From Lachnospiraceae bacterium (GTDB taxonomy: Bacteria > Bacillota > Clostridia > Lachnospirales > Lachnospiraceae): a DNA stretch of 64,000 bases. The notes under the pieces are model-generated. The model ran no database searches, was not told where the DNA came from, and was given only the letters and a program-made list of their open reading frames with translations. Positions within the stretch are counted from its first letter, which is position 1. Every line of letters starts with the position of its first letter. The position numbers and the translations under genes were made by a program. Positions 10,750-25,047 of the stretch are shown piece by piece. Location: contig JALFVM010000050.1 of NCBI GenBank assembly GCA_022787145.1, forward strand, positions 1,161-65,160, read 5' to 3'.

Positions 10750-10781
10750 TTCTTTTCTCCATTCCTTTTGGTTTTTTCTTT

Positions 10782-11339
10782 TTATTTGTGTTTTGCCAGA
10801 TACTCGGCTCTTCCCTCCTCATAGAGATTGTTGCCCTCACTGTCAATGATGACAACAAGCGGCATATCTTCCACATAAAGTTTTCTCAGTGCCTCCGCAC
10901 CCAGATCTTCATAAGCGATCAGCTCTGCCTTCTTGATGCATTTTGCAAGAAGCGCGCCCGCTCCTCCGATTGCACCAAAATAAACACCACTGTACTGCTT
11001 CATTGCTTCCACCACTTCCGGAAGACGCGCGCCTTTTCCGATCATGCCTCTCGCACCTACGGACATCATCGTCGGTGCATAAGCGTCCATACGTCCACTT
11101 GTTGTCGGTCCGGCAGAACCGATGACCTGTCCAGGTTTGGCCGGTGTCGGTCCTACATAATAAATGGTTGCGTCAGTCGGGTCAAAGGGAAGTTCTTTCC
11201 CTTCTGCCAGTGCCTCGCACATTCTCTTGTGTCCGGCATCACGTGATGTATAAATCGTGCCGGTCAGCAGGACTCTGTCTCCTGCATGAAGTGTTTTTGC
11301 CAGTTCCTCGGTAAGAGGGAGTGTAATTTTCTTTTCCAT
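10782..11339 (-). CDS. Fe-S hydro-lyase beta subunit (class I fumarate hydratase / tartrate dehydratase type)
   Basis: 185-aa beta-type subunit immediately downstream (1-nt gap) of the alpha subunit. GPTTSGRMD motif. Confidence 0.85.
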   Translation of the reverse strand: MEKKITLPLTEELAKTLHAGDRVLLTGTIYTSRDAGHKRMCEALAEGKELPFDPTDATIYYVGPTPAKPGQVIGSAGPTTSGRMDAYAPTMMSVGARGMIGKGARLPEVVEAMKQYSGVYFGAIGGAGALLAKCIKKAELIAYEDLGAEALRKLYVEDMPLVVIIDSEGNNLYEEGRAEYLAKHK

Positions 11340-21096: not shown

Positions 21097-22044
21097 TTAT
21101 AATTCAATATGCGCAATGACTGCTTTCAGTGCATTGGCACTTGCCTGCAGTTTTTCAATCTCATGCTTATTCATCCGCATCGGCACCTTACCCTGAATAC
21201 CGTTCGGTCCCACCATCGTCAGTGTACTCAGACAAACATCTTCAATTCCATACTCTCCGTGCATCATGGAAGACACCGTTGCAATGGAATCAGAGGAAGC
21301 AAGCAAAATATTGCACAGCTTGCAAACTGCTGTTGCTACTGCATAGAAGGTTGCACCTTTGTTTGCAATCACCATACCGCCGGATTTGTGAACATATTCT
21401 TCCAGTCCTTCCTTATCCAGAGGCTCGATATCCAGTCCTTTCGATTTTGCCAGCTCATAATATTCATCTACGCTCACACCGGAAATATAAGCGCCTGTCC
21501 ACGGAACAAACGACGTATCTCCATGCTCACCAAACACATATGCATGAATATTTTTCTGTGCAATTTTATATTGCTCGGAAATTCCGCAGCGCAGACGGGC
21601 AGTATCCAGAATCGTTCCGGAACCGATGATCTGGCTCTCTGGCAGACCAGAAATTTTTGTAAATACATACGTCATAATATCAACCGGATTGCTGACAATA
21701 ACATAAAGTGCGTCTGGTGCTGCCTTTACGATTTCCGGAGTAATACTTTTTAAAATATTTACATTTGTCTGGGTCAACTCAATTCTTGTCTGCCCCGGCT
21801 TACGCGCAATACCAGATGTAATAATGACGATGTCAGAACCTTTTGCATCCTCATATTCCCCTGCCTGAATTGAAATCGGATCTCTGAAACAAGTTCCCTG
21901 AGAAATATCCATGACTTCACCAGCCACTTTTTTCTTGTTGATGTCAATCAGAACAATCTCTGATGCGATGTCCTCATGGGATAATGTATACGCAATCGTT
22001 GCTCCAACACTTCCAGCCCCAATGATCGTGATTTTGCTGCTCAT
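21097..22044 (-). CDS. L-lactate dehydrogenase-family 2-hydroxyacid dehydrogenase (Ldh/Mdh; Arg at the Gln102-equivalent position)
   Basis: 315 aa. ITIIGAGSVG Rossmann, GEHGDT catalytic His loop, SGTILDTARLR. The substrate loop reads GIARKPGQTR. Confidence 0.85.
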   Translation of the reverse strand: MSSKITIIGAGSVGATIAYTLSHEDIASEIVLIDINKKKVAGEVMDISQGTCFRDPISIQAGEYEDAKGSDIVIITSGIARKPGQTRIELTQTNVNILKSITPEIVKAAPDALYVIVSNPVDIMTYVFTKISGLPESQIIGSGTILDTARLRCGISEQYKIAQKNIHAYVFGEHGDTSFVPWTGAYISGVSVDEYYELAKSKGLDIEPLDKEGLEEYVHKSGGMVIANKGATFYAVATAVCKLCNILLASSDSIATVSSMMHGEYGIEDVCLSTLTMVGPNGIQGKVPMRMNKHEIEKLQASANALKAVIAHIEL

Positions 22045-22095: not shown

Positions 22096-22294
22096 TAGAT
22101 GGTTAAAAAAATAAAATCCAGCAAAAGCAGTCTATTATTATATAATTCCAATTTAATATATAATAAAAACACATAAAAAATGCAACGAAAATATTTCCCT
22201 ATATTTTCATATTTTGCAAGATTTTACAAATTCTCCTTTACCACTGTTAAATTTTTATCAACTATATTAAAGATAATACAACTAAATTTTCCGT

Positions 22295-22325
22295 TTGACA
22301 AGCCCCAAAATAATTTTTTTACAAT
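22295..22325 (+). promoter_or_regulatory. Sigma-70-type promoter facing structured element copy A
   Basis: TTGACA (22295-22300), 19 nt, TACAAT (22320-22325). The spacer is 2 nt longer than optimal. The conserved element begins about 27 nt downstream. Confidence 0.4.
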
Positions 22326-22350
22326 TCCACAAAATTCCCGTTTATCGTGT

Positions 22351-22646
22351 CGTATGTGCACCGCTTTTCCCGTCACCGGAACAAATTCCCAACGGCAATG
22401 TTGGGCTTTAGAGCTTCCGAATAGCCATTTGCACAGGGAAGGCTTTCCACATCAAGTGCGATCTCTCCGCTTGTGCGGGCATACCTTTGGCAGATTTTCT
22501 TGTTTGGCTGCGCCGCCTATAGATTGCTTTTCAAACAAACTCGCGCCCTGCGCTCAAACAGTGTTTTCAAAGCAATCGCTATGCTCGCCAAGCCTGCGAA
22601 AATCTGCCAAAGGTATGCCCGCACAAGCGGAGAAATCTGCACTTTG
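22351..22646 (+). ncRNA. Candidate structured non-coding element, copy A (family unassigned; RNA versus ssDNA unresolved)
   Basis: No credible ORF. The 33/33-bp stem 22467-22499 / 22598-22630 encloses a conserved junction and an apical stem-loop (22522-22577). Homologous to the reverse complement of 22777-23078, with compensatory stem changes. Confidence 0.45.
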
Positions 22647-22712
22647 ATTCTGGAAGGTGATTGATCTGTGCAAATTGTCTGTTCTACATGAGTGGCTATC
22701 TTCATCTTTATA

Positions 22713-22744
22713 GGTGCTGTGTGGGCAGATAGCCCACAAGCACC
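22713..22744. other. GC-rich hairpin at the centre of the inverted pair
   Basis: GGTGCTGTGTGGGC (22713-22726) / GCCCACAAGCACC (22732-22744), 13 bp with one bulge. No adjacent U-run on either strand. Confidence 0.4.
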
Positions 22745-22776
22745 AAATGTAAGCATTACATCTTTTGAGAAAATGT

Positions 22777-23078
22777 AGGAGTTTTCCGCATGACCGTGCT
22801 CGTCCGGGAGGGATACCACCGCTCAGGCATTTGGAGAAATTTTCGCAGATTTTTCGAGCATAGCGATTGCTCGCGACGCACTGTTTGAGCACTATGTGCG
22901 AGTTTGCGTCAAGAGCAATCCATAAGCGGCGCAGAAAAAGCAAGAAAATCGACATGCTTGGGCGGTGGTATCCCTCCCGGGCGAGTGGCGGTCATGTGGA
23001 AAAACTCCGGAAGTAAGCAACCCAAAAACTTTGCCGTTTGAAAGTGTTCCGGCGAATAGAAAAGCGGTGCACATACAA
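22777..23078 (-). ncRNA. Candidate structured non-coding element, copy B (inverted, diverged)
   Basis: The reverse complement aligns block-wise with copy A. Its own main stem is 22789-22822 / 22962-22996 (19-bp perfect core CCGGGAGGGATACCACCGC), and its apical stem-loop is 22865-22920. Confidence 0.4.
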
Positions 23079-23091
23079 CCATTTGAAGAAC

Positions 23092-23149
23092 GCAAAAAGA
23101 GAGTACCGCTTCCCCGGCTGAATCAATCAGCGTGAAAGCGGCACTCTCC
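23092..23149 (-). terminator. Rho-independent terminator of glgA
   Basis: Stem GAGAGTACCGCTT (23099-23111) / AAGCGGCACTCTC (23136-23148) with an inner GCTGA/TCAGC helix. On the minus strand it is followed by TTTTTGCG. Confidence 0.75.
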
Positions 23150-23166
23150 TTATATGAGTGCAAATC

Positions 23167-25047
23167 TTATCTTGTTAATTCCAGATACAAATCTTTATAC
23201 TGTTTTGCAGAATTGTCCCAGGAGAAGTTCTTGTCCATATCTCTCTGAACCATCTCATCCCAGCACCAGCGATTTGTAAAATACAATGTCTTCGCTCTGT
23301 TGATCGCATCTAATAACAATCCAGCTTCATAGCGATCAAATGTGAAACCATTTCCTGTATTGGAGTACATATTGTATGGTTCTACTGTATCTTTCAAACC
23401 ACCTGTCTCACGAACAATCGGCACCGTTCCATAATGCATCGCAATTAACTGTGTTAATCCGCAAGGTTCAAACTGAGAAGGAACCAGCAATGCATCCGCT
23501 CCTGCATAAATCCTGTGAGCTCTTGTCTCATCATACATAATACTAGAGCAGATTCTTCCCTTGTAAGCATTTTCATAATACCGGAAGGAATTCTCGTAAA
23601 CATCATCTCCAGTACCCAGCACAACAATCTGTGTATGCTCGTCCATAATCTGCGGAATAATCGCATTCAACAAATCCAATCCCTTCTGATTTGTTAATCT
23701 GGAGATTAATCCGATTACAAATTTGTTTTCATCCTGAACCAGACCCAATTCTGCCTGCAGTTTCCGTTTGTTTTCTTTCTTTTTATCCAATACACTTGTA
23801 ATATCATAATTTGCATACAGTCTGGAGTCCGTAGCAGTGTTCCAGATGTCATAATCAATACCATTCACAATACCTCTTAATTTTCCAGAATGATATCTCA
23901 AATGCGCATCCAGTTTTTCTCCATAATATGCCGTCTGAATTTCTCCCGCATAAGTATTGCTAACTGTAGTAATCACGTTTGAATAAGTTAAGCCGCCCTT
24001 TAACATGTTTGCGTCTCTGTAGCCCTGTTTTAATGCATCTTTGTTGAATACATAATCCGGCAGTCCTGACCAGTACTGAATCGTCGGAATATTGTAGATT
24101 CCCTGGAAACGCAGATTATGAATCGTGAAAATTGTTTTTGCAGAAGTCAGTTTTGTATTTTCAAACAGCGTTCTTAAATATACCGGAACGAGAGCTGCCT
24201 GCCAGTCATGACAATGGATAATATCCGGAATCCAATTCATATAATTCAGTGCAGCCAATGCAGCTTTTGAGAAATAGCAATATTTTGGAATATCATCGAT
24301 CAGGTTAATATACGGATCTCCATCGCTGAAAAATTCCTCATTGTCGATGAAATCATAGACAACACCATCCCACACGTACTCCATGATTCCTACATAAAAA
24401 GCTCTGCCATCTGAACATAAATTCATCTGGAAAGATCCCTTGTATACCATCTTCTCCTGATATTTCCATGGAATACATTTATAGCGAGGAAGAATTACTT
24501 TTACATCACAATTCTGTTTCACCAGTGCTTTTGGAAGTGCATACATAACATCTCCCAAACCGCCTGTTTTTACGAAGGGATAACACTCGGATCCTATAAA
24601 TGCAATACTCCTTCTTGGAGTTGTCGTTGCTTCATATTTGGGTTCTTCCACTACTTCCTTCACCTCTTTAACTTCCTCTACAACTTTTGCTTCTTCTTTT
24701 ACTTCTTGCGCCGGCTTTTCTTCTTTGACAGTTTCTATTGTTTCAACAGGCTTTTCTTCTTTCACAGCCTTCTTTCTTCTCACAGGTTTTTTGACAGTTT
24801 TTGTCTCTTTTGCCGGTTCTTTTTCTTTGACAGTCTTTGTTGTTTTCGCTGTTGCTTTTTTCCTAACAGTCTTTGTTGTTTTCGCTGGTTCCTTTTCTTT
24901 GACAGCCTTTGTCGCTTTCACTGGCTCTTCTTCAGCAGTCTCTCCCCCGGTTTTTGCTGCACTTGCCTCTGCCGGAGCCTCTTTTGTCACTTTCTCCACA
25001 GATTCCACTGCTTGATCTGCAGTTTTTGTTATCTTTCTTCTGGCCAT
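23167..25047 (-). CDS. glgA: Glycogen synthase with about 155-aa Lys/Glu-rich repetitive N-terminal extension
   Basis: GT5 core from IAFIGSECYPFVKTGGLGDV onward (KTGGL motif). The ATG at 25047 has GGAGGTG 6 nt upstream. No ATG codon lies between the annotated start and the catalytic core. Confidence 0.9.
   Translation of the reverse strand: MARRKITKTADQAVESVEKVTKEAPAEASAAKTGGETAEEEPVKATKAVKEKEPAKTTKTVRKKATAKTTKTVKEKEPAKETKTVKKPVRRKKAVKEEKPVETIETVKEEKPAQEVKEEAKVVEEVKEVKEVVEEPKYEATTTPRRSIAFIGSECYPFVKTGGLGDVMYALPKALVKQNCDVKVILPRYKCIPWKYQEKMVYKGSFQMNLCSDGRAFYVGIMEYVWDGVVYDFIDNEEFFSDGDPYINLIDDIPKYCYFSKAALAALNYMNWIPDIIHCHDWQAALVPVYLRTLFENTKLTSAKTIFTIHNLRFQGIYNIPTIQYWSGLPDYVFNKDALKQGYRDANMLKGGLTYSNVITTVSNTYAGEIQTAYYGEKLDAHLRYHSGKLRGIVNGIDYDIWNTATDSRLYANYDITSVLDKKKENKRKLQAELGLVQDENKFVIGLISRLTNQKGLDLLNAIIPQIMDEHTQIVVLGTGDDVYENSFRYYENAYKGRICSSIMYDETRAHRIYAGADALLVPSQFEPCGLTQLIAMHYGTVPIVRETGGLKDTVEPYNMYSNTGNGFTFDRYEAGLLLDAINRAKTLYFTNRWCWDEMVQRDMDKNFSWDNSAKQYKDLYLELTR
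24760..24905. repeat. In-frame imperfect tandem repeats encoding KTTKTVKEKEPAK-type units
   Basis: Repeated CTTTGACAGTCTTTGTTGTTTTCGCTG-like units inside the glgA 5' region. Confidence 0.6.

Follow-up and report, generated by a model that had tools for sequence, protein, structure and literature searches.

In a 64-kb stretch of Lachnospiraceae DNA (contig JALFVM010000050.1; the whole stretch is called the window here), the ldh/mdh gene (21097-22044, minus strand) and glgA (23167-25047, minus strand) bracket a 1.12-kb gap that holds two inverted homologous stretches, which had been read from the letters alone as two copies of a folded RNA or single-stranded DNA element. The present analysis indicates that they make up a real, unclassified and structurally elaborate repeat, one of the small intergenic palindromic repeats. 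It is a composite of about 760 bp (22331-23090), consisting of arm A, a spacer and an inverted arm B, and homology to other loci ends at both of its borders. We think it somewhat probable that this is a dispersed, non-coding composite palindromic repeat that belongs to the non-autonomous mobile elements of the foldback, MITE (miniature transposable element with inverted repeats) or REPIN-like kind. A structured-RNA gene fits the data no better than a repeat or mobile element acting at the level of DNA.

The composite repeat and its sites

A 155-aa open reading frame (ORF) that is open across arm A (22180-22647, plus strand) was used as bait in a protein database, and 11 ORFs were obtained, every one of them on a short ENA contig. 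Copies of the element were gathered from the contigs obtained with this bait (L113-L120) and from contigs anchored by thyA (L121-L130). It can be seen that homologues exist elsewhere, as the original prediction required: many further copies lie on ENA gut metagenome contigs, all from one species. In 12 of the 12 contig arrangements that span both arms (the window, L012, L113-L119, L121, L128 and L129), an A-type arm is followed by a spacer and an inverted B-type arm. A-type arms share 81-92% identity with arm A of the window and B-type arms 85-94% with its arm B, whereas arms A and B can be aligned with each other in blocks only (column identity 77% for the arms as a whole and 88% for the core). 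Because arms of the same type are closely identical and the two types agree only block by block, the arms should have diverged before the family spread, and therefore the unit that was copied would be the whole composite of about 0.75 kb. The two stretches had been proposed as independent, diverged inverted copies; the arrangements indicate instead that they are arms of one composite, multiplied together.

The copies occupy unrelated intergenic sites. Homology borders are sharp, and clustering of the outside flanks gave 12 distinct flank junctions, which means at least six loci. The flanking neighbours include glgA, ldh, VanZ, thyA, tRNA-Thr, TPK, NUDIX and helicase; four of the 12 flanks are intrinsic terminators that face the element, and the rest consist of promoter regions or ends of genes. 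Neither a common target motif nor a common flanking tetranucleotide was found among the junctions.

Arm A (22331-22687, plus strand; about 355 nt) was aligned with 10 other A-type copies and consists of a terminal domain and, after it, a long interrupted hairpin. Arm B (22759-23090, minus strand; about 330 nt) was aligned with other B-type copies and has its long hairpin at 22778-23008. That two homologous copies lie here in opposite orientation had been claimed correctly, since the long identical blocks GTATGTGCACCGCTTTTC, AGCAATCGCTATGCTCG, GCTCAAACAGTG and CTGCGCCGC are recovered by pairwise alignment; two 17-mers of the element have no further occurrence in the 64-kb window. The positions first given (22351-22646 and 23078-22777) were also right, but the extents fell short. 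Arm A is lengthened by a lower stem, in which TTTGCACAG (22428-22436) pairs with CTGTGCAAA (22666-22674), and by about 20 nt more of conserved terminus.

The outer terminus of arm A (22331-22369, plus strand) has the family consensus CAAYTTCCTGTTTGTNGGGTTGTATGTGCACCRCTTTYCC, and the 12 distinct flanks abut it. It forms a terminal inverted repeat with 23052-23090, the 40-nt arms being 83% complementary in an inverted-repeat search. The sequence GTATGTGCACCGCTTTTC is perfect at both ends of the element, with a perfect terminal block of 18 nt, and the terminus consensus is common to both arm types: over the copies the outer end reads CAAYTTCCTGTTTGTNGGGTTG-TATGTGCACC, and the terminus of the units reads CAAYTTCCTG...GTATGTGCACC. 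Inside the terminal domain lies a small hairpin, CCCAAC-GGCAAT-GTTGGG (22388-22405, plus strand), with the conserved loop GGCAA; its equivalent in arm B is CAAAC...GTTTTTG. A nearly invariant apical core of about 112 nt caps the long hairpin in both arms; that of arm A (22493-22604, plus strand) was scored by model R1 with 128.5 bits in the sense and 24 bits in the antisense direction. Its blocks come in the order GATTTTCTTG, CTGCGCCGCCTATAGATTGCT, AAACTCGC-hairpin-TCAAACAGTG, AGCAATCGCTATGCTCG and CGAAAATC. The corresponding core of arm B (22838-22950, minus strand) gave 137.3 bits with the same model. The spacer between the arms (22688-22758, assigned to neither strand) has a G+C-rich hairpin at 22713-22744, and spacers differ among copies in sequence and in length (about 70-440 nt). 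In L116 (840-1235) the spacer is about 440 nt long, as against about 95 nt; the extra stretch of about 400 nt lies between GTTGGACA and CAACTCCGTCCC and starts with an inverted copy, GGGGACGGAATTG, and one segment of it is common to the spacer of L012.

Exact-protein look-ups of ldh and glgA indicated that ENA assemblies of gut metagenomes often contain the species. Plasmid and phage collections gave no match in the distant mode of blastn, whether the whole element or its core was the query, and no match to a 20-base core pattern was present in the GTDB representative genomes. IMG/VR gave only chance seed-length matches or none with two 17-mers and a gapped core pattern, and JGI metagenomes gave six chance matches only with a 21-mer. 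In the 80 closest Lachnospiraceae glgA loci (1.39 Mb from Blautia, Bariatricus and other Lachnospiraceae, with 70-92% identity in the best segment), the element was not found by blastn, nhmmer or a covariance model, and there was no adjacent ldh, i.e. no glgA-ldh synteny. In the nearest NCBI genome (GCA_965318715.1, with thyA 90% identical), the 160-nt region upstream of thyA is without the element. As far as can be seen, the repeat is confined to one uncultured Blautia/Bariatricus-like gut Lachnospiraceae species.

Conserved cores, paired stems and arm conversion

The inverted-repeat search recovered all the main and apical stems that had been listed in the original prediction. In arm A, the stem arms 22460-22499 (the 5' arm of a perfect 40-bp stem) and 22598-22637 are 40 nt long and 98% complementary; in arm B, the stem arms 22799-22835 and 22949-22985 are 37 nt long and 86% complementary. 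The apical stems lie at 22515-22537/22562-22584 in arm A and at 22858-22880/22905-22927 in arm B. The 24-nt apical loop described before is present as well, but it is not wholly unpaired, as it contains a covarying 4-bp mini-hairpin, GCGC-CCT-GCGC in arm A and GCAC-ATA-GTGC in arm B. Compared with shuffled sequences, the predicted fold of copy A is -149 kcal/mol (z -11.5), that of copy B -137 kcal/mol (z -11.2) and that of the whole element -401 kcal/mol (z -24.6). A single strand of the whole element is predicted to take a Y shape, in which the terminal domains of about 85 nt pair with each other and two long hairpins stand out.

RNAalifold analysis of 11 A-type copies gave a long hairpin at 22419-22684 (plus strand) with an interrupted stem of about 100 bp. 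Over its 86 pairs, 98.8% of the cells are paired and eight pairs are changed on both sides. As controls, column shuffles gave 95.7% pairing (none of 500 reached 98.8%), and sliding the partners lowered it to 33-47%. Changes on both sides include GATCTC/GAGATC, GATATC/GATATC and GGTTTG/CAAACC, and CTTGTG/CACAAG against CTTCCG/CGGAAG. For the core, 16 distinct sequences from the two arm types were compared; their 34 pairs reach 98.3% pairing (91.5% when shuffled), and seven are changed on both sides, for example TTTGGC/GCCAAG in one type and TTTTTC/GAAAAA in the other. The B-type arms have 81 pairs, with two-sided changes in seven of them. Unpaired sequences of the core are invariant across A and B types, several pairs that bear G.U in some copies swap with G-C or A-U in the arm A and core alignments, and the hairpins are retained despite 10-20% divergence between copies. 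These results indicated that the central claim, namely conserved loops on covarying stems, is correct for arm A, arm B and the core.

The main stem of arm A has a more particular history. Alleles L022, L025, L010 and L012 of the same glgA-ldh locus are otherwise about 97-99% identical to the window. In these sister alleles the 5' stem arm reads GG(T/G)CAACCTGTT----GATTTTC, and the 3' stem arm is the same as in the window, bar one base in L012. The sequence GGGCATACCTTTGGCAGATTTTC, the exact complement of the 3' arm, is present only in the window and in L018. Four differences, including a precise 4-nt insertion, fall inside 14 nt (22479-22492), and all of them go toward perfect complementarity. 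Most simply, this allele-specific tract would reflect one template-switch event, that is, quasi-palindrome correction. Because the sister alleles carry the unconverted 5' arm, the perfect 33/33-bp stem is, judged from the alleles, a recent derived state that arose by conversion of one arm. The 33/33 bp had been taken as a case of compensatory change. The pairing stands, but this reading of it does not, the perfect stem being limited to the window and the L018 allele.

It was reported previously that template switching creates and maintains hairpins without selection (PMC8794818; see also PMC7202029). Since conversion between arms yields compensated stems with no selection on an RNA, covariation here does not prove an RNA. 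Of the folded nucleic acid under selection that was first proposed, fold, loops and covariation are borne out, but at least one cluster of seemingly compensatory changes goes back to a single recent conversion of one arm.

The copies are also mosaics of one another. Hybrid units, the two stem arms of which come from different copies and no longer match, occur in arm A (L019, L119 and L128) and in arm B (L118, L012, L021 and L023). In single contigs, glgA and arm B are connected across the element not with ldh but with thyA (L019), with a tRNA-Thr/holin region (L021) or with a TPK region (L023). The thyA gene is faced by a B-type arm in L121 and eight other contigs, and by an A-type arm in L129 and L019. 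Contig ends often lie inside the element (L016, L026, L122-L127 and L130). Such contig breaks and hybrid arms are typical of a dispersed multi-copy repeat. The hybrid and rearranged contigs could be real recombinants between copies or assembly chimeras; the latter is possible since the identical core, about 137 nt, nearly equals the k of 141 used by the assembler.

Two further kinds of variant were observed in A-type arms. In L023 (8549-8707) an insertion of about 154 bp is nested in the core, between GATTTTCTTGTC and TGGCTGCGC; it has 18-bp perfect terminal inverted repeats, TAGCAGTTCAATAAAATA ... TATTTTATTGAACTGCTA, and looks like a separate small MITE. In L021 (8440-8495) and L115 (148-176) an extra palindromic branch, GTACAGCGAA...TTCGCTGTAC, of about 51 nt and about 25 nt respectively, lies between GCTCGCCAG and CGAAAAT, and could be template-switch hairpin growth or a tiny insertion.

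Mobile element, structured RNA or host DNA site

The repeat is probably a mobile element rather than a stand-alone RNA gene. It would be, or would have been, non-autonomous and of the foldback, MITE or REPIN type; an enzyme whose gene lies at another place in the genome would copy it, and this enzyme may recognise the termini and/or the conserved cores. Recognition would most plausibly be of folded single-stranded DNA, in the manner of HUH/Y1 enzymes; an enzyme of this single-strand-acting type seems most plausible because no target-site duplication was found, the anatomy is dominated by hairpins and the hairpin cores are conserved. The hairpins may be kept up partly by selection for a folded substrate and partly by template-switch correction. 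At present the copies might serve mainly as recombination substrates, by which arm modules are shuffled and distant loci are joined.

Several observations weigh against this reading. No target-site duplication was found at the composites of the window, L121, L116 and L118, for which both flanks are known, a test limited in that the terminus is exact to within a few nucleotides only and the copies are old. No empty site was seen either: the element is there in all glgA-ldh and thyA contigs long enough to include the site, so that no polymorphism of presence and absence points to recent mobility. Neither an autonomous copy nor a transposase or recombinase was found, and with at least six loci the number of copies seen is modest. 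In addition, the best conservation falls in the apical hairpin cores and not in the termini, which is atypical for MITEs of the DDE type, and conserved unpaired loops on covarying stems are equally expected of a functional RNA.

Possible but unlikely, in our estimate, is the alternative that survives best, namely that each arm, or a transcript of the ~760-nt composite, is a new large structured non-coding RNA whose core loops bind protein or nucleic acid, the copies forming a paralogous family. The covariation well above controls in arm A and the core, the G.U-bearing pairs that alternate with G-C or A-U and the loop sequences common to both arm types all speak for it, but template switching demonstrably yields compensated stems here. 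Strand preference is a further argument: the strand that carries arm A sense and arm B antisense folds 2.5-18 kcal/mol better in 8/8 composites (not independent of each other), and the G.U positions of the core favour the sense strand, but with arm B alone the antisense strand folds better. The strand asymmetry predicted in this way is small and mixed, and so offers a weak and contradictory signal. In addition, no consensus promoter or terminator was found inside the element in the window, L121 and L116. Arm B starts 10 nt past the tail of the glgA terminator; the two genes beside the element at the thyA locus (VanZ and thyA) both point away from it; and the arm type that faces the upstream gene differs among loci, so that orientation to the neighbours is inconsistent. 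An outward promoter motif, TTGACC-16-TACAAC, seen at some termini (e.g. L121:4850-4890 and L117:205-245), was discarded, being degenerate in both window arms and not called by the promoter scan.

The comparison with known RNA families bears on the same alternative. With the covariance models of Rfam 15, including ROOL, GOLLD, HEARO, raiA, Clostridiales-1 and group II intron domains, no match in the window reached the gathering score. The sole match at E values up to 10 was the plant MIR399, which scored 32.8 bits where the gathering score is 57 and fell on the perfect stem in both strands; it was rejected, and it was not repeated in five other element copies, which had no real Rfam match. The original prediction could place the element in no family, and this check agrees with it. 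Restriction to one species, mosaic copies and assembly breaks inside the element are features of a repeat and likewise count against a new RNA gene.

We consider it quite improbable that the element is a double-stranded DNA or cruciform site domesticated by the host, for example a recombination or inversion site, a nucleoid or topology element, or an insulator between operons, with no transposition involved. Such a site would agree with the fixation of the element at its loci in all sampled strains and with its constant position at intergenic boundaries beside terminators or promoters, including the four terminators that face it. Either arm type can face thyA (L121 as against L129 and L019), and contigs link glgA to three other loci through the element. 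However, each rearranged contig was seen once and may be an assembly chimera, no recombinase is nearby, an arm of 330 nt far exceeds known sites of recombinases or nucleoid proteins, and a conserved host function is hard to square with the absence of the element from close relatives. That it is fixed at all sampled sites and that its core is conserved nevertheless leaves room for a DNA function at the level of the host.

That the element is a piece of a duplicated gene in decay, or an inverted repeat that arose by chance, deserves almost no credence, although the 155-aa ORF is open across arm A: its protein relatives are ORFs called on other element copies, without Pfam domains and with frame shifts between copies, the indels between copies are not multiples of three, the fold z-scores run from -11 to -25, and paired positions are kept across more than 10 diverged copies. 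The 155-aa ORF itself has no Pfam domain match and the copies are open in different frames, hence it is taken as non-coding. The original prediction was therefore right that the element is non-coding, that its indels ignore the reading frame and that it is no decaying duplicate or coding remnant. One other ORF, of 33 codons in arm B (22790-22891, plus strand; AGGAG-N8-ATG, encoding MTVLVREGYHRSGIWRNFRRFFEHSDCSRRTV), was considered as a small-peptide gene and rejected, the peptide not being hydrophobic. A similar ORF is kept in L113, L116 and L118 and is frame-shifted in L114, and the palindrome GGAGTTTT(T)CCRCATGACC probably gives rise to it incidentally.

Surroundings and relation to known repeats

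Two signals of the neighbouring genes lie just outside the element. The intrinsic terminator of glgA (23091-23148, minus strand), with its hairpin at 23100-23148 and its T-run at 23091-23099, directly abuts the terminus of arm B and is invariant in all glgA contigs. On the other side, 30 nt beyond the terminus of arm A, a promoter-like site for ldh/mdh, TTGTCA-17-TATTAT, is found at 22273-22301 (minus strand). The ldh/mdh gene heads a cluster (14592-22044, minus strand) of CCG-domain, ferredoxin, HdrA-like flavoprotein (662 aa), FlpD/MvhD-like and FAD/NAD-binding genes, which from its composition looks like a heterodisulfide-reductase-like electron-transfer module linked to lactate/malate dehydrogenase. 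The glgA product has 626 aa (638 aa as called in some contigs), and because most relatives align only from about residue 100-140, it would be a protein with a variable N-terminal extension. A link between the window and the thyA locus through a 1509-aa ORF of the window was dropped, as this ORF is glutamate synthase and not the PolC found near thyA.

No candidate transposase, recombinase, reverse transcriptase or nuclease was found in the 64-kb window, which holds housekeeping functions only, so that no recurring partner protein for the element was found there; no tnpA, tnpB or iscB gene is adjacent to the element. In L021 a 74-aa ORF with an RRXRR domain (10770-10994, minus strand) lies about 2 kb from an element copy; it is a fragment and not adjacent. 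The RRXRR domain is typical of the N-terminus of HNH/IscB-like nucleases. To our knowledge, no parent insertion sequence (IS) with the same ends is known, and none was found in the window, in plasmids and phages or among the GTDB representatives.

If the repeat is a mobile element, REPINs are among its nearest counterparts. REPINs are doublets of REP (repetitive extragenic palindromic) sequences which form hairpins and are mobilised by RAYT transposases (PMC3116915, PMC3337134). The repeat described here resembles them in having two related inverted units with a spacer between, which fold together, and in being non-coding, extragenic, often beside terminators, lineage-restricted and vertically persistent; target-site duplication is lacking in both, and mobilisation would be in trans on presumed folded single strands. 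In contrast, its units are 330-355 nt long, each with its own 100-bp hairpin, and hence about 10 times the size of a REP sequence (20-40 nt). They are differentiated into A and B types, the GTAG/CGTC tag is not present, the loci number at least six here against tens to hundreds, and no RAYT (Y1/HUH) gene was found in the 64-kb window. A bolder proposal, which we hold to be rather unlikely, is that the element is a giant REPIN in which two differentiated arms of about 330 nt, each with an invariant 112-nt core on a sequence-free 100-bp stem, serve as substrate of a trans-acting enzyme in the form of folded single-stranded DNA or RNA, or alternatively that each arm is a new class of large structured RNA.

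The other small intergenic repeats include bacterial MITEs, Correia, RUP, BOX, ERIC and the Bacillus cereus bcr repeats (reviewed in PMC3184786). With these the element shares terminal inverted repeats, the lack of coding capacity, several dispersed intergenic copies, a stable predicted fold, nested insertions and modular variants. It differs from MITEs in that 760 bp exceeds their typical size, that no target-site duplication was found and that conservation is highest in internal hairpin cores and not at the ends alone. The palindrome-associated IS200/IS605 elements, TnpB/IscB omega-RNAs and HEARO are similar in their hairpin-rich ends, in the absence of target-site duplication and in a possible single-strand mechanism; HEARO and omega-RNAs had been named in the original prediction as families to check. 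However, the element has clear terminal inverted repeats, which IS200/IS605 lack, and no Rfam match to HEARO or IS605-orfB was obtained at E values up to 10. ROOL, GOLLD, raiA, OLE and Clostridiales-1 RNAs fall in the same size class of several hundred nucleotides, with covarying helices and conserved loops, but none of their covariance models matched here, and they are single-copy genes with their own expression signals in many genera, whereas the element is multi-copy and found in one species. Group II introns, retron msr/msd, IS110 bridge RNAs, integron attC sites, single-strand origins of rolling-circle replication and hairpin telomeres were set aside on the grounds of anatomy, copy number or a missing partner gene.

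The reach of the finding is limited because the element was found in one species only. If the reading as a mobile element is right, the repeat would be an unusually large and elaborate member of the foldback/MITE/REPIN group in an abundant uncultured gut Lachnospiraceae, and it would point to a trans-acting enzyme that recognises the conserved 112-nt hairpin core. It would explain the assembly breaks, and possibly mis-joins, at the element sites of this species. Finally, it would provide a natural example of how several nucleotides of a hairpin can change in a seemingly compensatory way in one step, by conversion of one arm, and hence a caution for RNA discovery based on covariation.

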